DNA of 6,281 nucleotides from a virus (taxonomy: Duplodnaviria; Heunggongvirae; Uroviricota; Caudoviricetes), in the IMG/VR virus record IMGVR_UViG_2541047777_000002. One strand, written 5' to 3'. Of the stretch, positions 1-6,135 are shown in pieces. The number at the start of each line of letters is the position of its first letter. The stretch's first letter is position 1. The position numbers and the translations under genes were made by a program. Under the pieces are notes generated by a model that did not search any database, was not told the origin of the DNA, and was given only the letters and a program-made list of their open reading frames with translations.

Positions 1-1
1 A

Positions 2-1303
2 GCCGCAATTGAAGCGACTGCGCGTAACGACTACGCCAGCAACATGATCTGCATCATGCACAGCGACGGTTATAAGGTATCGCCGCTGGCCACCGATTAT
101 GCTGCGAATGATATCGGTAAAGATCTGCGTAAAGAAGCGCGGGATATTGTGTGGGAACAGACACTGGATCTGCACCTCAATACAGAAACTCCACAAGAAT
201 CAGAGCGTGAAGAACTGCTAAAAAAACGCGCGCTGACGCTTGAAGAACAGGCAAAACTTGTCCGCTGGGATATTGAAAACGAACTGAAACTACCGGTTGA
301 AGAAGGCACACTGAAATTCTATTTCGATGGTGCTCGAGACAAAGTTCGCCGCTATGAAACAATGCTTTTAGATGAGGTAACAGCTCGTCGTTACGACCGG
401 GAAGAAGCAGCCATCAATTTTACCTACGCATACCGTCAGGCGGGACAGTGGCAATATTTTGTAGTGACCGCGATGACTCGCGAGCAGGCTGATGATGTCT
501 TTAAAACTAAATTCCCTGGAATAATCGATCACAAGGTAAAAGCTACTCCTACTGTTGAAGTCGGGGCTCGCGGTTTCTATGCGCTTAAATCAGCAACTCT
601 CCGGCAGTACTTTATCGACTGCGGTATCAACCCTGAGACTATGACCGGCGAGGCGACTCAGGAGCGTCTCAAATTCGCTCGAGATAATCTCATGACAGCC
701 GAACGCCGTGACCTGTTGAATAACGTTCTGCACATTGGTGGTTTTATGACGCCAAAAGGGAAGCCTAAAGTGCCGGAAGCGTTGTTTAAAAACATTTGCG
801 ACTCTCTTGGCCTTAAAACAGGTAAACGTCGCGGCAGAGACGGCGATAAGCGTCCAACCTTGCGTTTTGTTGAGCCTGAATCAGCGGCATTTATGCTGGA
901 TATTCTTGTTCAGCGTCAGAAAGATGGCCTAACCCTAAAAACGCGTAAAGCCGAGAAGACAGCCATCGAAATGGATCGCGATTTGGATCTCAATATATAT
1001 ATGGATGATAAAACGCGATCCACAAACGAGCAGGTTCAAAACGCCCCTCATTCAGTAATTTCTGAGGCTTTGGCCGTATTGCCGGTGGCTGTTCCTGAGT
1101 CCTGGGCGATGAGTGCGCTTTCCGGTGAGGAGCTGGCCACTATGTCATCATGGTCATCAACCAGCATAGCTATGACGTTTGCATCTCTGTACCTCACAGA
1201 GTTCATGGATCACTTGTCCAGCAATGAACTGCGGCGGTTACGAGAATACATTACCGGGAATAGCTCATGCAGCTACGAAGAGCAGGGCGCTTTCTATGGG
1301 TAA
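2..1303 (+). CDS. hypothetical protein, 5'-truncated at window edge (at least 433 aa of C-terminal sequence)
   Basis: Seen: the reading frame is open from base 2 with no stop until TAA 1301-1303; the track ORF 44..1303 is only the first internal ATG. Balanced, charged composition with ordinary coding appearance. No domain recognised by eye. Confidence 0.6.
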   Translation, partial: AAIEATARNDYASNMICIMHSDGYKVSPLATDYAANDIGKDLRKEARDIVWEQTLDLHLNTETPQESEREELLKKRALTLEEQAKLVRWDIENELKLPVEEGTLKFYFDGARDKVRRYETMLLDEVTARRYDREEAAINFTYAYRQAGQWQYFVVTAMTREQADDVFKTKFPGIIDHKVKATPTVEVGARGFYALKSATLRQYFIDCGINPETMTGEATQERLKFARDNLMTAERRDLLNNVLHIGGFMTPKGKPKVPEALFKNICDSLGLKTGKRRGRDGDKRPTLRFVEPESAAFMLDILVQRQKDGLTLKTRKAEKTAIEMDRDLDLNIYMDDKTRSTNEQVQNAPHSVISEALAVLPVAVPESWAMSALSGEELATMSSWSSTSIAMTFASLYLTEFMDHLSSNELRRLREYITGNSSCSYEEQGAFYG

Positions 1304-1388
1304 TCAGTGGATATTATCTTTGTGTCTCTTGCTTTGTGTGTTCCAGCAATGGTTTTGGTTCATAGATCGAAAGTCTCACAAGGAAAAC

Positions 1389-1487
1389 ATGAAGGCCAGG
1401 AAGGCGATGTTTCGTGGTGAACAACTCGCGCAGACTTATCGTATGTGGAAACGCTTCTATCGTGATTTTTCGGTGAACGGGGAGTAA
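1389..1487 (+). CDS. possible small basic peptide (32 aa)
   Basis: Seen: ATG 1389 preceded by AAGGA (1380-1384) at 4 nt spacing; stop TAA 1485-1487 sits 4 nt before the ATG of the next gene. It is the 3' part of track ORF 1179..1487, whose upstream part overlaps the preceding CDS. Short and unsupported by homology. Confidence 0.2.
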   Translation: MKARKAMFRGEQLAQTYRMWKRFYRDFSVNGE

Positions 1488-1491
1488 AAAT

Positions 1492-1818
1492 ATGTCTACT
1501 ACTGCATTTTTGGACAAACTTGATTACCGTCAGCTGCAGTTCTGCCGGGATGAATGCGATCGACGCATTAAGGCTATCCAGGAGGAAGAAAAAAAGGTCG
1601 CCTGGGCTGTAACAGATCGTGGCCTTATCTTTGGCTGGTTCCGTACGGAGGATTACCTGAAAGCAGTGGAATTATTGGCGCGTAAGGCTGCTGAGCGTTG
1701 GGAACGAGCCGACAAGGAAAACCCGGAGACGAAGTATGAACTGAATCTCTACATCGAGGGCAACCGTCTACCATTGTCAGAGTATAACGCTTTGTTTGCT
1801 GATGGTGAGTGGGGTTAA
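1492..1818 (+). CDS. hypothetical protein, 108 aa, predicted cytoplasmic
   Basis: Seen: ATG 1492 with GGGGAG about 7 nt upstream; stop TAA 1816-1818 is 2 nt before the next start (translational coupling). No hydrophobic segment. No recognised domain. Confidence 0.6.
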   Translation: MSTTAFLDKLDYRQLQFCRDECDRRIKAIQEEEKKVAWAVTDRGLIFGWFRTEDYLKAVELLARKAAERWERADKENPETKYELNLYIEGNRLPLSEYNALFADGEWG

Positions 1819-1820
1819 AA

Positions 1821-2216
1821 ATGGCTGTTCAATCATACAAACACCAATCCCTCTTGGATAAGGGATACATTCGCATCAAGCTAAGTCGTTCTCAGCATAA
1901 GGCCATTTTTAGGGTAAGGAAAATTCGTATATGGGATACGTATGCGTATTACTATAACGGTGAAGAGGTTATTGTTGAGCACTTTCTTGCCCGATGGTTT
2001 GTAGCCCTGATTTTTGTCCCTTTTCTGTTAATTGGCACTTTGGCAGACGGTTTTCCTAGCACATGGCAGGAGCTAAAGAAATGCCTTTTCCCGCATAGAT
2101 ACGGTAGCCTTTCGGCAGACAGCTGGCGAGTTATACCTGGTAAACATTCTGTGGATGAGCAGCCGATTGTTGATTACTGGTTGAAGCGTATGGCTGATGC
2201 TAAAAAAGTTGATTGA
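1821..2216 (+). CDS. hypothetical single-pass membrane protein, 131 aa (alternative GTG start at 1809)
   Basis: Seen: ATG 1821 preceded by GAGTGGGG; one strongly hydrophobic segment (WFVALIFVPFLLIGTLA) after a basic N-terminal region; stop TGA 2214-2216. AT-rich coding sequence. Confidence 0.55.
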   Translation: MAVQSYKHQSLLDKGYIRIKLSRSQHKAIFRVRKIRIWDTYAYYYNGEEVIVEHFLARWFVALIFVPFLLIGTLADGFPSTWQELKKCLFPHRYGSLSADSWRVIPGKHSVDEQPIVDYWLKRMADAKKVD

Positions 2217-2243
2217 GTTGTGATAACTGTTACAGGAGATAAA

Positions 2244-2531
2244 GTGAAGAGTTTTATTTTGGTTTTATGTTTTGCCTTTTCTGCTGCGGTTTATGCCCAG
2301 GAAGATAGCATTTCTGTTATTAACTCATCAGCGGAGCTTGCATGTAAAAATAATCCCGATGCTGCATCAAAAGAATCATGCAAAGAACTGCTCCTTTCGA
2401 CGGCTGCTTTTGCTTCTGAAAATGCGAAATTTTATTCAGCCTTCTGTCGCGGCTATGTTAAGGAAGAAGATAAAGAAAAATGTGATGATGCCGGTAAGTT
2501 AGTTAGGTATTTCCACTCTCTTAATCCGTAA
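2244..2531 (+). CDS. hypothetical secreted/periplasmic small Cys-containing protein, 95-aa precursor (track start 2220 is an upstream in-frame GTG)
   Basis: Seen: GTG 2244 preceded by AGGAG (2233-2237) at 6 nt; N-terminus (M)KSFILVLCFAFSAAVYA/QE looks like a Sec signal peptide with an AxA-type cleavage site; mature part has 4 Cys; no lipobox. Stop TAA 2529-2531. Confidence 0.55.
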   Translation: MKSFILVLCFAFSAAVYAQEDSISVINSSAELACKNNPDAASKESCKELLLSTAAFASENAKFYSAFCRGYVKEEDKEKCDDAGKLVRYFHSLNP

Positions 2532-2592
2532 TGGCCTTTGATTAACGATCAACTTCTGATCACTCGTTCAAGCAAACTATAAAAACACCTGT

Positions 2593-2612
2593 CCCCGTGA
2601 CTGGTCACGGGG
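2593..2612. repeat. perfect 20-bp palindrome CCCCGTGAC-TG-GTCACGGGG
   Basis: Seen: 9-bp arms around a 2-bp centre, 62 nt after the stop of the upstream cassette and about 20 nt before a candidate -35 box. Flanked by GTTTTTAT on the minus-strand side; only a weak T-rich tract on the plus side. Function (terminator, operator or partition-type site) is not decidable from sequence. Confidence 0.5.
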
Positions 2613-2632
2613 TAAAATGTCTTTGCAAATTA

Positions 2633-2662
2633 TTGACGTGTGCGTCGTTTTGACGGTAAAGT
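2633..2662 (+). promoter_or_regulatory. candidate sigma70 promoter for the anti-immunity operon (TTGACG - 18 nt - TAAAGT)
   Basis: Seen: TTGACG at 2633-2638 and TAAAGT at 2657-2662. The -10 match is weak (4/6) and there is a second TTGACG at 2650-2655. Inference only. Confidence 0.25.
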
Positions 2663-2691
2663 TACTCCGCTGCGGCAAATTCCGCAGCCGG

Positions 2692-2715
2692 GCGTGAGAA
2701 CCCGGATAAACGAAG
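2692..2715 (+). promoter_or_regulatory. upstream copy of antisense-RNA target sites (a1 GTGAGAA 2694-2700; b1 AAACGAAG 2708-2715)
   Basis: Seen: both elements are exact reverse complements of two single-stranded segments of the downstream RNA (TTCTCAC 2828-2834; CTTCGTTT 2813-2820). The 10-mer GCGTGAGAAC (2692-2701) recurs at 2862-2871. Knowledge: phage P1 immI has a1/b1 upstream and a2/b2 downstream of c4. Confidence 0.5.
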
Positions 2716-2720
2716 CGCAC

Positions 2721-2743
2721 AACACGCGCCAGCGTGTTTTTTT
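2721..2743 (+). terminator. intrinsic-terminator-like hairpin (AACACGC-GCCA-GCGTGTT) followed by a T run
   Basis: Seen: 7-bp stem with 4-nt loop; seven consecutive T at 2737-2743, of which the first two pair in the stem. Lies between the a1/b1 elements and the structured RNA. The stem is short, so efficiency is uncertain. Confidence 0.5.
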
Positions 2744-2772
2744 GTGTGTATATACCTGCGCATATCCGATTT

Positions 2773-2855
2773 ATGGTGGCTCAGGCGGGGCTGACTTCGG
2801 TCAGGCCGGTTTCTTCGTTTGCCGGTATTCTCACCCCCGCTTGGGCTACCACCAT
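2773..2855 (+). ncRNA. c4: c4-type antisense (repressor) RNA of an immI-like anti-immunity locus; ends approximate
   Basis: Seen: 7-bp closing helix (ATGGTGG 2773-2779 with CCACCAT 2849-2855); inner helix GCGGGG 2785-2790 with CCCCGC 2835-2840; hairpin CTGAC-TTCG-GTCAG (2791-2804); hairpin CCGG(T)/(G)CCGG (2806-2825) whose loop carries CTTCGTTT; unpaired TATTCTCAC (2826-2834). Both single-stranded segments are complementary to short elements upstream and downstream. GC-rich, with no convincing ORF. Knowledge: this matches P1/P7 c4 and N15 CA RNA. Confidence 0.65.
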
Positions 2856-2861
2856 TCAAGA

Positions 2862-2901
2862 GCGTGAGAACTCTGGTGGTAGCACGACCAATTAAACGGA
2901 G
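2862..2901 (+). promoter_or_regulatory. downstream antisense target sites (a2 GTGAGAA 2864-2870; b2 AAACGGAG 2894-2901, overlapping the SD of the Icd-like ORF)
   Basis: Seen: a2 is identical to a1; b2 pairs with the RNA loop CUUCGUUU using one G-U wobble and contains GGAG 8 nt upstream of ATG 2910. Inference: pairing would occlude the ribosome-binding site. Confidence 0.6.
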
Positions 2902-2909
2902 TGCATACC

Positions 2910-3074
2910 ATGTTCAAATTCAAATTTGCGGCAGTCGTTCGCACAGACAAAAAGTCACACATCCATCATCTTTCCACCATCGCGTCATCTGAACGGGAAG
3001 CTCGTCGCCAGTTCGCCAGCCGGTTTGTCCTGGTATTGTCTGCCCGTATTCCGGTGCGCGAGGTGGCTGCATGA
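2910..3074 (+). CDS. icd: Icd-like small protein (putative cell-division inhibitor), 54 aa; not in the supplied ORF track
   Basis: Seen: ATG 2910 with GGAG 8 nt upstream; translation MFKFKFAAVVRTDKKSHIHHLSTIASSEREARRQFASRFVLVLSARIPVREVAA; stop TGA 3072-3074 overlaps ATG 3071 of the next ORF. Knowledge (from memory, not searched): resembles Icd-like proteins that follow c4 in P1-type immI loci. Confidence 0.6.
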   Translation: MFKFKFAAVVRTDKKSHIHHLSTIASSEREARRQFASRFVLVLSARIPVREVAA

Positions 3075-3304
3075 ATCAGGTAAAAATGAACACTGTTGGC
3101 CTGCTGGAATCGTTGGATGAACGTCTGGCTCAGGTCTATGCGCTCGTATCATCAGCCCATCGGACAGTCTCCAGCTGTGAGGCGTCGATTTATCTCTCAG
3201 AAGCAGGGAAACTCCTTCAAATTGCGTGTGAGTTAACACACGAAGCACAGGGATATTCAGCATCGCTCTCGTCGCAATTGCTGCACGGTAAGGAGGCTGA
3301 ATGA
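3071..3304 (+). CDS. hypothetical protein, 77 aa, within the antirepressor operon
   Basis: Seen: ATG 3071 with GAGGTGG (3060-3066) 4 nt upstream; ATGA overlap with the previous stop and with the next start at 3301. No recognised domain. Confidence 0.6.
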   Translation: MNQVKMNTVGLLESLDERLAQVYALVSSAHRTVSSCEASIYLSEAGKLLQIACELTHEAQGYSASLSSQLLHGKEAE

Positions 3305-4074
3305 GCGCGTTAGCAGTCTTTTCCTTTCAGGAAGAGCATCAGGTACGTGTAGTGATGATTAACGGCGATCCGTGGTTTGTGGCGAATGATATTTGCAATG
3401 CTTTAAGCATCCAGAATGTCACACAAGCTATCGCTCGATTAGATGAAGATGAGCGATCTATGTTTAACATAGGCCGTCAAGGTCAAGCCAATATCATCAG
3501 TGAATCAGGTCTTTACACGCTCATTCTCCGCTGCCGTGACGCTGTAAAACAGGGCACGACCGCGTGGCGTTTTCGTAAATGGGTAACGAACGAGGTCTTG
3601 CCCTCTATTCGCAAGAATGGAGAGTACGTTTACGTCGAGCCTGAGCCAATGCGAGCAGCAGAGCCGTTGAACTGGAGGCAGAAGGAGTATCTGCGAGGGC
3701 TGATTAACGATATTGCACAAAGTTTTCAATACCGAAATGCCTGGATTAGTGGTGTATGGTTGGCTTTGCGTCGGGCGTGTCGTAATCCATCCCCGAACCC
3801 CATAACGGTTGATGATTTGCCAGCAATTACGGCAGAACTGCGCCGGATTTTGACGGCTGCTGAGTCGGCATTGGGGAACATGCGCACGTATGAACGAGAG
3901 TTGTTGCGTGATGTTGTTCGTGGGGGTAGGCGGAGTATGTCGTGTGGTGATTTGCCCATCACCGATATTAACTCTGATCTGGAAAAGGCGTTACCCGCGC
4001 ATTTTGAACTGGCAGTTCAAAAACTTGAGCAGTTATCCGCGCAGCTAAAGCCAGCAGAAATCACCAATAAATAG
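3301..4074 (+). CDS. ant: phage antirepressor with N-terminal Bro-N-type domain, 257 aa
   Basis: Seen: ATG 3301 with strong SD TAAGGAGG (3289-3296). N-terminus FSFQEEHQVRVVMINGDPWFVANDICNALSI...GLYTLILRCR...FRKWVTNEVLPSIRKNGEY matches the Bro-N / antirepressor pattern (FxF, DGxxWFva-Dva, GlY-li, VLPxiRk-G) as recalled. Gene order (antisense RNA, icd-like, ant) supports the call. Confidence 0.8.
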   Translation: MSALAVFSFQEEHQVRVVMINGDPWFVANDICNALSIQNVTQAIARLDEDERSMFNIGRQGQANIISESGLYTLILRCRDAVKQGTTAWRFRKWVTNEVLPSIRKNGEYVYVEPEPMRAAEPLNWRQKEYLRGLINDIAQSFQYRNAWISGVWLALRRACRNPSPNPITVDDLPAITAELRRILTAAESALGNMRTYERELLRDVVRGGRRSMSCGDLPITDINSDLEKALPAHFELAVQKLEQLSAQLKPAEITNK

Positions 4075-4245: not shown

Positions 4246-6135
4246 TTAACCGAAATATGTCAGCCATGCTAACTGCATTGCTGACATGGGGCTGTTTGCA
4301 CTGCCGGACCACGCATAATTCTGGCCATTATAATGAAACTCAACAACGTATGAGCCATCACCAATATTTCTCACCGGCTTAAATACCGGCTTAGATACAG
4401 GCGAAGAAGGTGCAGGCGGTTGCTGTTCTTCTACGCTCTCTTCCTCTTCCTCTATCTCAATTTCGTCGTCATCCAGATCGTCATCCTCTGACAATTCATC
4501 CGCCAGTTCAGGTATTGCTTCCAGTTCTTCTTCGTCAGGCATAACGATTTCTGGAGTATCTATTTTCAGTTGCCATTGTCCGTTTTCGCCAACAAATTGC
4601 CCCAGAGCATCAGCAGCAAATTCCAGGTATCGACTAATCATTGTTGGGCTAAATTTGAACGCTCTTAGAGTGCTGTTCGTGATTTTTATAGAGGGGTCCT
4701 GCTCTACCAGCTGCTTAACTGTGTTATGCAGACGAACCCCGGCATCTCCTCTGGCGAATCCAGGCATTTCGTCATCAAGCTGCTGCAATGCTTCCAGCCT
4801 GGTATTTTCGTTTCCAGTATTTGGCCTCCATGTCTTTGAGAAGTTGGCCAGCTTGAATTGCTTATAGTGTAATTGAGTGTTTTCATCGTCATGGCCTAAA
4901 ATTTCCATAAAGAAAACATCTTCATCTACGTTTTTCCAACGAGGATCTACGCGGAAAAACATTTCATACGCAATACGGGCATAAATAGCACGACTATCTT
5001 TATAAACACGGCGGTCATCTTTGAAAAATGATTTAACCCACGGGTTAAAAGCCTTTGCTAATATGGCATTAATACGTCCGTTTTCAGAGCGTGTGTCGTT
5101 ATCTCCATAACCTTTAACGACATCATCAAAATCAGATGCTGCTGGGCATGAGCGAAGTACATTTATTAAATAAACAAATGTTTTTGCTTCGCATAATGTA
5201 TATATTTTTCTGGTTATATCATCAGAAGTTCTTTTTTTAGCTTGGCCTAAAAAATCAACGGTATACTTACCAGAAACAGTAAATGTACCTTGATACATAA
5301 TCTCAATCATTCGTCTTCCTGACAATGCAGCAAGTGCAAATGCCAAAGGAGCCATACCTGAACGAGTGTTTAGATTATTTAATGTAGCAGGGCTATTTAT
5401 AATATCGTAAATAGCTTGCATATATTTAGGGTAATCAATGACCACCACGTTACGTTTCTTATTGTGCAGAACGTCCGCCCATCGTTGCTGGATAGATGCA
5501 CGTTCGGCAGGGCTTAGTTGAAGATGATAGAGAATCTCATGGTTAACTTTTAGCTGATTCAACTCCTCAAGTAATGCAGATCCTTGCTGTAGTAATTTAT
5601 ATAAATAATCGCGCTTATCTTTCCAGTTATCGCTAGTTAAATCAGAAATGGCGAATTGCCACTCTTTATATTTATTTGATAATTTCAATAACTTATTATG
5701 ACTTTTGTTATCGCCAATTCTGATATTAGATAAATCTTCTGATAGAGGGAGAATTAATTTTAATTTTGCCTGTAAAGCTGACATTCTCTGGCGAATATCG
5801 GCAGCAGGTAGAGAAAGCCATGACAATAGCTCCTCATTATATAAAGGATACTTTTCAGATAGGCGATGTATATTTTTTTCAAAGCTATGATGAAGTTTAT
5901 CATCAAACCGTTTTCTGGCCCTGCTCATATAGGCATTGAATGTGTTGGCTGTAATTCTTTTTTCTAATCCTTTCCCCCTAAACTTTCGCTTGTCATTAAA
6001 TAATGCATTTTTAAATTTTAATGCAACAGCCTTTATTTTTTTTGTTTTCTCCCCTTGAGGACGGTCAGAGTTATCTATTGACTCAACATCGCTAACAAGT
6101 GAGTTTATTAATTCACCGATTTTTACTTTGCTCAT
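4246..6135 (-). CDS. telN: protelomerase (telomere resolvase), TelN-like, 629 aa
   Basis: Seen: intact 629-aa ORF with SD AGGAGAGG upstream of ATG (minus strand). Knowledge (from memory): long stretches (N-terminus MSKVKIGELIN..., RSGMAPLAFALA, RSENGRINAILAKAFNPWVKSFF, RRVYKDSRAIYARIAYEMFF, NTQLHYKQFKLANF) match phage N15 TelN, including a tyrosine-recombinase-like catalytic region, an acidic linker and a C-terminal domain. Confidence 0.9.
   Translation of the reverse strand: MSKVKIGELINSLVSDVESIDNSDRPQGEKTKKIKAVALKFKNALFNDKRKFRGKGLEKRITANTFNAYMSRARKRFDDKLHHSFEKNIHRLSEKYPLYNEELLSWLSLPAADIRQRMSALQAKLKLILPLSEDLSNIRIGDNKSHNKLLKLSNKYKEWQFAISDLTSDNWKDKRDYLYKLLQQGSALLEELNQLKVNHEILYHLQLSPAERASIQQRWADVLHNKKRNVVVIDYPKYMQAIYDIINSPATLNNLNTRSGMAPLAFALAALSGRRMIEIMYQGTFTVSGKYTVDFLGQAKKRTSDDITRKIYTLCEAKTFVYLINVLRSCPAASDFDDVVKGYGDNDTRSENGRINAILAKAFNPWVKSFFKDDRRVYKDSRAIYARIAYEMFFRVDPRWKNVDEDVFFMEILGHDDENTQLHYKQFKLANFSKTWRPNTGNENTRLEALQQLDDEMPGFARGDAGVRLHNTVKQLVEQDPSIKITNSTLRAFKFSPTMISRYLEFAADALGQFVGENGQWQLKIDTPEIVMPDEEELEAIPELADELSEDDDLDDDEIEIEEEEESVEEQQPPAPSSPVSKPVFKPVRNIGDGSYVVEFHYNGQNYAWSGSANSPMSAMQLAWLTYFG

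Follow-up and report, generated by a model that had tools for sequence, protein, structure and literature searches.

The end of the repA operon in this E. coli N15-like telomere (linear) phage-plasmid is best explained as a mosaic in which each accessory gene has been inherited separately, with no three-part machine. Of three small packed genes found there (A, B and C), C behaves like a stand-alone, moron-like family and like the sole mobile add-on. We regard this explanation as probable, a grading which applies to the account as a whole, that is the mosaic together with the role proposed for C below. The statements on the anatomy and evolution of the repA-operon stretch, taken jointly, are made with considerably more confidence.

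The distal repA operon and its surroundings

The window, meaning the whole 6,281-nt stretch analysed (IMG/VR record IMGVR_UViG_2541047777_000002), covers the distal repA operon and runs from the repA 3' end through orf63, A, B and C to the C4-RNA/antirepressor locus and telN (Table 1). An earlier note on this DNA had taken it for a phage-plasmid prophage, which agrees with the presence of a TelK-type protelomerase, an N15 RepA and the C4 RNA/Ant locus. The repA product, labelled primase/CyRepA1 in the annotations of relatives, matches phrog_4913 'replication' (E 4e-151, profile positions 883-1289 of 1290). The three same-strand open reading frames of the earlier note are present, the gaps of 2 nt between A and B and 27 nt between B and C are borne out by the ORF coordinates, and a Shine-Dalgarno-like motif precedes each gene, namely GGGAG (7 nt 5' of 1492), GAGTGGGG (before 1821) and AGGAG (5 nt 5' of 2244).

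Table 1. Features of the repA-operon end and of the adjoining anti-immunity locus (window positions)
Feature	Position	Strand	Description
repA 3' end	1..1303	+	N15 gp37-type replication protein; ORF passes the left edge of the window
orf63	1296..1487	+	Small protein with N-terminal hydrophobic helix; first gene 3' of repA
Gene A	1492..1818	+	108-aa soluble protein, N15 gp35 family; ATG start
Gene B	1821..2216	+	131-aa protein, one transmembrane helix (residues 60-78); ATG start
Exchangeable single-gene module with C	2222..2554	.	Breakpoints 2222-2231 (left) and 2543-2554 (right)
Gene C	2244..2531	+	95-aa precursor, 4 mature Cys; GTG start
C signal peptide (predicted)	2244-2297	+	Cleavage between VYA and Q
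C mature protein (predicted)	2298-2528	+	77 aa, two C-x11-C pairs
G+C-rich 8-bp hairpin	2593..2612	+	CCCCGTGAC-TGGTCACGGGG; in the spacer from the repA operon to the anti-immunity promoter
N15 immA-type anti-immunity locus, start	2633..2856	+	Outside the cassette; Rfam matches

A fourth packed gene, orf63, is absent from the cassette of the earlier note. Its start codon overlaps the repA stop (ATGGGTAA) and it ends 4 nt before A. The hydrophobic helix (Kyte-Doolittle 1.85) spans residues 5-23. The gene is annotated in PhiR46_1, its homologues come after repA in most N15-like loci as well as in NAR688, and its dN/dS is 0.2-0.5.

The description of the cassette as AT-rich holds for C (38.9% GC; 30% at third codon positions, GC3) and partly for B (43.2%), but not for A, which at 48.9% resembles neighbours such as repA (48.5%) and the ant genes (49-53%, up to 52.7%). 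The telN gene (39.0%) is AT-rich like C, and the entire window has 44.9% GC. For comparison with the figures sampled earlier, the lowest 200-nt window in the cassette is not below 36.5%, against a reported 32%, and no 200-nt window of the whole stretch exceeds 55%, against 50-60% reported for its GC-rich parts.

Downstream of C, the hairpin lies within a stretch of spacer conserved at 79-92% among all relatives, and RNAfold gives -16.2 kcal/mol for the region 2580-2632. The hairpin has no T-run on the + strand and was not called by a terminator scan; it may be a transcription barrier. The anti-immunity locus that follows is 81% identical to the cA region of N15 and comprises a promoter-like site (2633-2662), c4-a1b1 targets, an isrK-like element, a terminator (2721-2738) and the C4 antisense RNA, with Rfam matches above the gathering score for RF03163 (2656-2708), RF01394 (2669-2742) and RF01695 (2769-2856).

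The earlier note recognised none of the three proteins, and neither they nor orf63 had a match in Pfam, NCBIfam or PADLOC. The PHROGs matched by the trio and orf63 are all families without known function, and no homologue of known function was found for A, B or C.

Separate inheritance of A, B and C

The distribution of the genes was surveyed in 38 loci anchored on repA in viral contigs and through plasmid counts in PLSDB (TelN 219, A 115, B 47, C 19); a repA-anchored scan of genome contigs yielded 2 loci only. The trio had been proposed as a cassette inherited as a unit, with a failure to co-occur elsewhere named as evidence against it, and such a failure is what the survey found. A single near-clonal E. 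coli lineage (95-100% identical) accounts for every case in which A, B and C occur together, and all independent samples break the trio. B is found without C in L010, L011, L013 and about 8 Escherichia plasmids, and without A in YDC107_1 and L029 (survey loci L002 and L029). C is found without A and B in L043 and in ten distant loci. Distant homologues of B lack C, and those of C have neither A nor B within 6 kb.

One further locus, L036, has C without A and retains the last 27 nt of B alone. This is a recombinant with its breakpoint in the 3' end of B, and shows C existing alone, not selected alone.

The trio could in principle be one envelope-spanning exclusion or defence system, with A in the cytoplasm, B in the membrane and C in the periplasm, gained together as an AT-rich moron. 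Tight same-strand packing, intactness in 12 of 17 complete E. coli genomes with the region as well as in the 19 plasmids, and complementary predicted compartments all speak for it. However, co-occurrence is limited to the one lineage and independent samples split the trio; moreover A is a backbone gene of normal GC, and the alleles of B reassort independently of A and C. PADLOC gave zero matches, and the components of a putative multi-gene anti-phage system do not co-occur across unrelated genomes. We therefore consider a single system very unlikely, and largely refuted by the distribution. A, B and C do travel together in most E. coli N15-like plasmids, 19 of about 29 in PLSDB, so that B and C may be functionally linked within this lineage.

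Within the mosaic, A belongs to the backbone of N15-like phage-plasmids, is shared with N15 and is no moron. It shares 64% identity with N15 gp35 over 107 of 108 residues (E 2e-50), the two proteins being of similar size (108 aa for A, 109 aa for gp35) and both encoded 3' of repA in the operon. The neighbours differ: N15 has gp36 on the 5' side of gp35 and gp34 and gp33 on the 3' side, whereas A lies between orf63 and the pair B and C. The family, which matches phrog_10878, comprises 72 protein clusters from several enterobacterial genera and retains 26 invariant columns among 17 diverse members. As had been claimed, A is soluble: it lacks a hydrophobic segment, the highest Kyte-Doolittle mean over 19 residues being 0.57. 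Its sequence predicts a cytoplasmic protein, remotely related to DUF5448 (PF17526), a family of 127-173 aa found at the same locus (E 7e-19), where it alternates with other small genes. Hhalign of the A family against the DUF5448 family of the locus gave 94% probability over 83 columns; A itself has no Pfam match at E<=0.1 and falls below the DUF5448 gathering threshold. Sequence and profile searches of the PDB with A found nothing significant (best OspC, E 0.021, taken as noise). A is probably made in the lysogen along with RepA; in keeping with this, a protein named gp35 appears in the NAR688 lysogen proteome discussed below.

B is an inner-membrane protein of a family limited to N15-like phage-plasmids, and matches phrog_15458. 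Its single transmembrane helix, also claimed earlier, has a Kyte-Doolittle value of 2.15 and keeps its position in the family down to 26% identity, with Klebsiella and Enterobacter relatives at 26-32%. The positive-inside rule gives conflicting answers: the flanks of 15 residues point to a C-terminus-in orientation, the net charge of whole domains to N-terminus-in. B usually lies directly 3' of A and is swapped among lineages as an allele; there are two alleles, with a dN/dS of about 0.3, indicating purifying selection. Searches of the PDB by sequence and profile gave nothing significant for B. Homology of B to N15 gp33, which also has one transmembrane segment at the same position, was considered and rejected (hhalign probability just 0.5%).

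The packing of these genes can be read in another way, with orf63, A and B as replication or maintenance accessory factors co-translated with RepA, and C as unrelated lysogenic-conversion cargo altering host physiology. In its favour, the orf63 start overlaps the repA stop, A and B follow at 4 and 2 nt, and orf63 and A have been kept alongside repA in different genera. The proteome of the NAR688 lysogen includes TelA, ImmA and a protein named gp35, which is placed among the genome-maintenance proteins in lysogens (PMC12042878); this gp35 was matched to the family of A by name only. However, orf63 and B are missing from N15, A is missing from YDC107_1 (in which B is frameshifted) and from about half of TelN plasmids, so each of the three is non-essential for replication. 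No DNA-binding or enzymatic domain was found in them. This reading is thus improbable, and the mosaic of separately inherited genes remains the preferred account.

Gene C as a predicted exported protein and a movable module

C is predicted from its sequence to represent a genuine family of exported (periplasmic) proteins. The signal peptide and the four cysteines described in the earlier note both stood up: there is a lysine in the n-region, a hydrophobic core and a VYA cleavage site, and Cys residues 34, 46, 68 and 80 lie in the mature part, with one further Cys before the cleavage site. Both the signal peptide and the four mature cysteines are invariant in homologues down to about 32% identity and over five subfamilies of C at 30-45%, in precursors of 91-98 aa. 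A dN/dS of 0.2-0.36 indicates purifying selection. The family is small, as a search of 1.84 billion representative proteins with C returned 12 matches only.

A first AlphaFold2 model of C, built from 3 near-identical sequences, reached a pLDDT of 64, and the fold search on it was uninformative. The second model, from 7 sequences, has four helices and a pLDDT of 85.4. Foldseek with this model found nothing at E<=0.001 in the PDB or BFVD; there were 49 PDB matches at E<=10, the best with E 1.4. Sequence and profile searches of the PDB also gave nothing significant, the best being a plant invertase inhibitor (E 0.79), which we took as noise. An internal duplication in C was tried and rejected, the alignment score of the two C-x11-C halves being equalled in 15% of shuffles.

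Of the cassette that had been suggested to be a horizontally acquired moron, C does behave like a gene moved horizontally: its breakpoints are clean and enclose one gene, its GC is the lowest, and its homologues occupy moron slots of unrelated phages. The suggestion fails for A. Presence or absence between collinear genomes with sharp boundaries is seen for C alone and not for A, and base composition is deviant in C, intermediate in B and not deviant in A. The boundaries can be placed closely. Homology to L010 stops at 2231 and restarts at 2554, homology to YDC107_1 stops at 2222 and restarts at 2547, and in N15 and L043 it restarts at 2543-2546; E. coli plasmids without C align only to window position 2231. 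In close relatives a lipoprotein gene or another small gene replaces C.

The distant homologues of C form AT-rich islands in lambdoid tail operons, followed by rho-independent terminators. They sit between tail genes I and J in L056 and L059, and directly upstream of the tape-measure gene in L042, L057, L058 and L060. The island in L056 has 38% GC against 55-61% around it. In the window, consensus scans, which are weak evidence either way, found no promoter-like site on the + strand from 1100 to 2632, hence none for B or C, and no canonical terminator 3' of C. With neither a promoter nor a canonical terminator detected for it there, C fails the strict (Juhala/Hendrix) definition of a moron.

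A known exclusion moron, HK97 gene 15 (PMC3594210), occupies the same slot as the C homologues upstream of the tape-measure gene, and both gp15 and C (the latter by prediction) are small envelope proteins of temperate coliphages. They differ in that gp15 is described as a membrane-inserted, YebO-like protein (PMC3594210), whereas C is predicted to be cleaved, soluble, disulfide-bonded and periplasmic. HK97 gene 15 also lies in a tail operon, whereas C in the window lies in a replication operon.

A possible protective role for C

An identical protein to C in PhiR46_1 (GenBank PV340565) is labelled 'Spackle exclusion protein'. That C would be a T4 Spackle homologue, inhibiting the tail lysozyme of superinfecting phages, is exceedingly unlikely. 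The proteins are near in size (95 vs 97 aa), each has a Sec signal peptide and each has Cys in its mature part, but Spackle has two mature Cys against four in C. A phmmer search of the PDB sequences with C brought up no Spackle protein at E<=10, and when the C family was compared with T4 Sp in hhalign, the alignment covered signal-peptide residues 1-16 alone, at 41% probability. The structures 6x6o, 6xc0, 6xc1, 7cn6 and 7cn7 were in the PDB searched, and none is among the Foldseek matches of the C model. Homology is rejected on the results of phmmer, hhalign and Foldseek, and the database label in PV340565 can be corrected, 'Spackle' being unsupported by sequence or fold. A conserved n-region, h-region and A-x-A-type site nevertheless predict for C the Sec export and periplasmic location seen in Spackle. 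T4 Spackle (gp61.3) is a periplasmic inhibitor of the gp5 tail lysozyme, and by analogy C may act similarly; Spackle is from a lytic phage and C from a temperate prophage.

The place of C in the operon is also the place of bacteriocin cargo. Klebsiella telomere phages carry telocin:immunity cassettes (TelA-E / ImmA-E), some telocins being peptidoglycan-degrading toxins that act in the periplasm, and the TelA-ImmA locus is situated in the interval from repA to the protelomerase gene (PMC12042878). Telocin cassettes and C thus share a slot, from repA to the C4/ant/telN region, and the telocin cargo, which the lysogen expresses, acts at the envelope (PMC12042878). In NAR688, homologues of orf63 and A lie immediately upstream of the telocin/immunity slot, and L023 has a Colicin_im-like 181-aa gene at the same place. 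The slot turns over fast, holding a lipoprotein gene, an ImmA-like gene or C.

B, C or both may therefore be seen as orphan bacteriocin-immunity genes, left in the telocin slot or recruited to it. C would act against a peptidoglycan-targeting telocin or colicin and B against a pore-former, guarding the lysogen against the toxins of rival telomere-phage carriers. Both are small and predicted to be envelope-located, and both share their quickly changing slot with the telocin:immunity cassettes, some with periplasm-acting toxins (PMC12042878). However, neither B nor C matched Colicin_im or other immunity families in family-library scans and with profiles, and homologues of C also occur in the tail operons of phages without a bacteriocin locus. 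Because an exhaustive search found only five small phage subfamilies, C has no detectable kinship to published Imm proteins. In contrast to a telocin cassette, the window holds no bacteriocin gene or domain; from 1304 to 3300, on both strands, no open reading frame exceeds 135 aa, hence there is no toxin gene or remnant. We consider orphan immunity an unlikely explanation.

For C within the mosaic, we propose a protective periplasmic role, which is possible but tentative. Since it has no promoter-like site of its own, C would depend on read-through transcription from the repA operon, and we assume that it is expressed in the plasmid-prophage state. The precursor would be exported by Sec and cut after VYA, and the mature protein would be oxidised in the periplasm to a four-helix protein with two C-x11-C disulfides. 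It would then act alone, as a binding or blocking protein shielding the envelope of the lysogen. Its target could be an agent that crosses the periplasm, for example the tail of a superinfecting phage or its lysozyme, or a bacteriocin. The neighbourhood of tail genes and of the telocin slot gives circumstantial support to such a role.

More speculatively still, and with considerable doubt, the C family could be a new class of prophage periplasmic protection proteins, built on a four-helix scaffold for which no structural relative was detected and hopping singly between moron slots. These slots would be the repA operon in telomere phage-plasmids and, in lambdoid phages, the I/J junction and the position upstream of the tape-measure gene. 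C would block a component of an incoming phage or toxin in the periplasm, playing in soluble form the part of membrane exclusion proteins, HK97 gp15 among them. In the E. coli lineage it may have come to act jointly with the membrane protein B.

As matters stand, the trio counts as ordinary accessory content of a prophage. In N15-like plasmids the repA-to-ant interval is assembled from single-gene modules and forms a recombination hotspot, and is therefore the wrong place to seek a multi-gene system. If C protects the envelope, a soluble, disulfide-bonded periplasmic type would join the short list of characterised superinfection-exclusion or immunity proteins, and the telocin slot would hold defensive besides offensive cargo in E. 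coli.

The element and its gene order

The ORF at the left edge of the window (ending at 1303) encodes the C-terminus of an N15-type RepA (phrog_4913), and 2543-3079 is 81% identical to the secondary-immunity (cA) region of N15. Together with the TelK-type domains, the Rfam matches and the gp32, gp31 and gp30 matches (see the table), this establishes the order repA, orf63, A, B, C, immA-type anti-immunity locus and telN (convergent), which parallels N15 genes 37 down to 29. The window is 97% identical over its whole length to Escherichia phage PhiR46_1 (PV340565.1; L001 among the loci compared), and 93% identical to the Ravinvirus YDC107_1 (CP025712.1; L002). In YDC107_1 both B (3076-3470) and the protelomerase gene (5434-7333) are broken into several ORFs, reflecting either frameshifts/pseudogenes or sequencing errors in record CP025712.1.

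Features of the window from orf63 to the protelomerase gene
Feature	Position	Strand	Remarks
orf63	1296-1487	+	63 aa
A	1492-1818	+	108 aa
B	1821-2216	+	131 aa
C	2244-2531	+	95-aa precursor
Hairpin, strong, 8-bp, G+C	2593-2612		In spacer kept by all relatives between repA operon end and anti-immunity promoter
N15 immA-type anti-immunity locus, complete	2633-3304	+	Known biology, well detected
Promoter-like site	2633-2662	+	Anti-immunity locus
c4-a1b1 targets	2656-2708	+	Rfam, above gathering score
isrK-like element	2669-2742	+	Rfam, above gathering score
Terminator	2721-2738	+	Anti-immunity locus
C4 antisense RNA	2769-2856	+	Rfam, above gathering score
icd/gp32-like ORF	2910-3074	+	54 aa; N15 gp32 homologue
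antA	3071-3304	+	Homologue of N15 gp31
antB, Bro-N antirepressor	3301-4074	+	257 aa; homologue of N15 gp30
Protelomerase ORF	4246-6135	-	629 aa; all four TelK-type protelomerase domains present

The antB gene is full length in the window. PhiR46_1 (L001 4803-4967) and several IMG/VR relatives have instead a 54-aa ORF matching only the first 20% of N15 gp30. The hairpin is not followed by a T-run on the plus strand, and on the minus strand a T-run starts 7 nt beyond; it may shield the ant locus from repA-operon read-through.

Anatomy and distribution of orf63, A, B and C

The earlier note had read A, B and C as one AT-rich three-gene cassette, suggested to be horizontally acquired and a candidate for a single system. 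The underlying observation is largely correct, but this framing is not. Coordinates, start codons, Shine-Dalgarno motifs and gaps (2 and 27 nt) all agree with the note. As had been proposed, A is soluble, having no hydrophobic segment; B has a single transmembrane segment (residues 60-78), found at the same position in relatives down to 26% identity; and C has a Sec-type signal peptide (MKSF..., cleaved between VYA and Q) and four cysteines in its mature part (34, 46, 68 and 80). All three are real genes. They are members of PHROG families; B has a dN/dS of ~0.3 and C one of 0.2-0.36. AT-richness does not extend to the whole cassette. Only C is clearly low in GC (38.9%, GC3 30%), equal to telN (39.0%), whereas B is at 43.2% and A, at 48.9%, resembles repA (48.5%) and the ant genes (49-53%).

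The genes are indeed packed, although the string begins one gene earlier, at orf63, whose ATG shares bases with the repA stop codon (ATGGGTAA). The orf63 protein has an N-terminal hydrophobic helix and a basic C-terminus that includes a conserved F.GE.FA..YRMW.R.YRE-like motif. Most N15-like loci have a homologue behind repA, as does the Klebsiella relative NAR688. The gene is absent from N15 and is left unannotated by PGAP in the E. coli plasmids of RefSeq.

A is 64% identical to N15 gp35, and its family, with 26 invariant columns among 17 diverse members, also occurs in Klebsiella, Salmonella, Enterobacter, Citrobacter and Serratia. Profile comparison relates it (hhalign 94%) to a 127-173-aa family of the same locus, Pfam DUF5448. 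Small A-paralogue-like proteins of the repA-to-ant interval in relatives (L004 7185-7568, L018 7309-7695, L028 7074-7595, L003 4468-4797, L002 3489-3713) include this family and a 74-aa family with 31% to A; N15 gp34, with 66% to the DUF5448 family, looks like another A paralogue. In the NAR688 lysogen proteome nine phage proteins were detected, 'gp35' among them (PMC12042878), which may be the A homologue, matched by name alone.

The B family has 16 invariant residues and a conserved transmembrane position. The positive-inside rule gives an ambiguous topology, and profile and family searches detected no relatives outside the family. Homology to N15 gp33, which occupies the same position, was rejected by hhalign comparison. 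Between the window and PhiR46_1, A and C are 100% identical in nucleotides and B only 90%, which argues that B is also swapped as a patch. The two B alleles (window 1801-2200, L001 3301-3700) are 85% identical in amino acids, with dN/dS ~0.3. Patchwise recombination is also indicated by the reassortment of B and C alleles across IMG/VR contigs.

Distribution was surveyed at 38 loci anchored on the RepA C-terminus, not on the cassette, and a plasmid collection was searched separately with each protein. TelN-type protelomerase matched 219 plasmids, A 115, B 47 (27 closely, and 20 from Klebsiella and Enterobacter at 26-32% identity) and C 19, all Escherichia or Shigella. The region was found in 17 of 5,426 complete E. 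coli genomes, plasmid-borne every time; twelve of these have the full string and three end exactly at window position 2231. N15 has A and lacks B and C, and YDC107_1 has a frameshifted B without A or C. In three loci (L010, L011, L013) orf63, A and B are 99-100% identical to those of the window, and a 270-aa lipoprotein gene stands where C would be. A is missing from L029, which has a distant B. L036 combines C with neither A nor an intact B (window homology begins at 2190, leaving B's last 27 nt), and in L043 the slot is filled by a C homologue of 45% identity, again with no A or B.

The earlier note had made co-occurrence of the trio elsewhere the test of a single system. Packed as the genes are, they occur together only in one nearly clonal E. 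coli lineage and independent loci split them, so that reading fails, and we consider a three-part system very improbable. The region amounts to a set of ordinary accessory genes, as yet uncharacterised, in an N15-like phage-plasmid. A division in which orf63, A and B would have a maintenance role and C would be unrelated conversion cargo is something we think unlikely.

Gene C as a mobile single-gene module

Homology to relatives lacking C stops at 2222-2231, right behind the B stop codon, and restarts at 2543-2554, right behind the C stop codon. C is a mobile module of a single gene. Cargo is known to occupy the interval from repA to the anti-immunity locus: Klebsiella telomere phages have their genes for the bacteriocin telocin and its immunity in the stretch from repA to the protelomerase gene, and lysogens express them (PMC12042878). 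NAR688 has orf63 and A homologues (A 65% identity) directly upstream of the telocin slot, and three loci (L023, L033, L034) encode at the same place a 181-aa protein with a Colicin_im match below threshold. It is conceivable, if rather doubtful, that B and/or C are orphan bacteriocin-immunity genes.

The slot seems to favour exported proteins. The 270-aa predicted lipoprotein (MRNKKTTALLLSILLLSGC...; L010 / L013 7564-8376) replaces C in otherwise near-identical elements and has no match in Pfam or PHROG, and L004 has a different lipoprotein, of 143 aa, at that end of its interval (7951-8382).

The C protein family and its possible role

Searched exhaustively with HMMER, a set of 1.84 billion representative proteins gave only 12 matches to C. 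Four are genuinely divergent subfamilies (32-45% identity), in all of which the signal peptide and the four cysteines are invariant. A or B was never found near these divergent homologues. Some fill the corresponding slot in another N15-like element (L043, L044). Others are inserted between tail genes I and J of lambda type, accompanied by a 137-aa lipoprotein (L056, L059), or immediately precede the tape-measure gene (L042, L057, L058, L060). The tape-measure slot also holds HK97 gene 15, the first described moron, which encodes a superinfection-exclusion protein (PMC3594210). The L056 insertion is a 38% GC island among tail genes of 55-61% GC and ends in a canonical terminator; in L058 a terminator lies immediately behind the C-family gene. 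In L056 (6001-6915) and L059 (5944-6730), the C-family gene and the lipoprotein gene (phrog_6823, a PHROG without an assigned function) make up an AT-rich island of two genes that has a terminator of its own. It is flanked, in a lambda-like phage, by tail assembly gene I and a J-like gene of 1277 aa, and may be a moron pair.

An AlphaFold2 model of C, with family sequences as input (pLDDT 85.4, pTM 0.69), has four helices (mature residues 4-15, 22-39, 43-53 and 56-75). Every C-x11-C pair spans one helix-turn-helix in the model, and we infer that these pairs would form disulfides. Foldseek searches of PDB and BFVD found no structural relatives at E<=0.001. Plant invertase/pectin-methylesterase inhibitors are four-helix, two-disulfide proteins; the similarity of the C family to them (2cj4, E 0.79), as to TIGR02301 (E 0.066), is non-significant and at most a lead.

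The identical protein of PhiR46_1 (L001 3744-4031 = PV340565.1 3086-3373) is labelled 'Spackle exclusion protein' in GenBank, an assignment that we reject. Against translated T4 sp, hhalign with the C family aligned 16 signal-peptide residues and nothing more (probability 41%). Spackle was not found by phmmer with C among PDB sequences and was absent from the Foldseek matches of the model, though PDB contains Spackle structures. The likeness is therefore limited to the signal peptides and C falls outside the Spackle family; true homology is exceedingly unlikely. By analogy, C may still work in a Spackle-like manner, as a small periplasmic blocker.

No promoter-like site was found on the plus strand in 1100-2632, which suggests that the orf63-A-B-C string would be read from the repA operon and, therefore, expressed in the plasmid-prophage state. 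Sec would export C, and the protein, once oxidised in the periplasm, would act alone. From the insertion places of the family and the other occupants of the same slots, we tentatively propose that C could guard the lysogen against something crossing the periplasm, a possibility that we favour without thinking it probable. C represents one genuinely mobile family of small periplasmic proteins, and it merits a simple exclusion and immunity assay.
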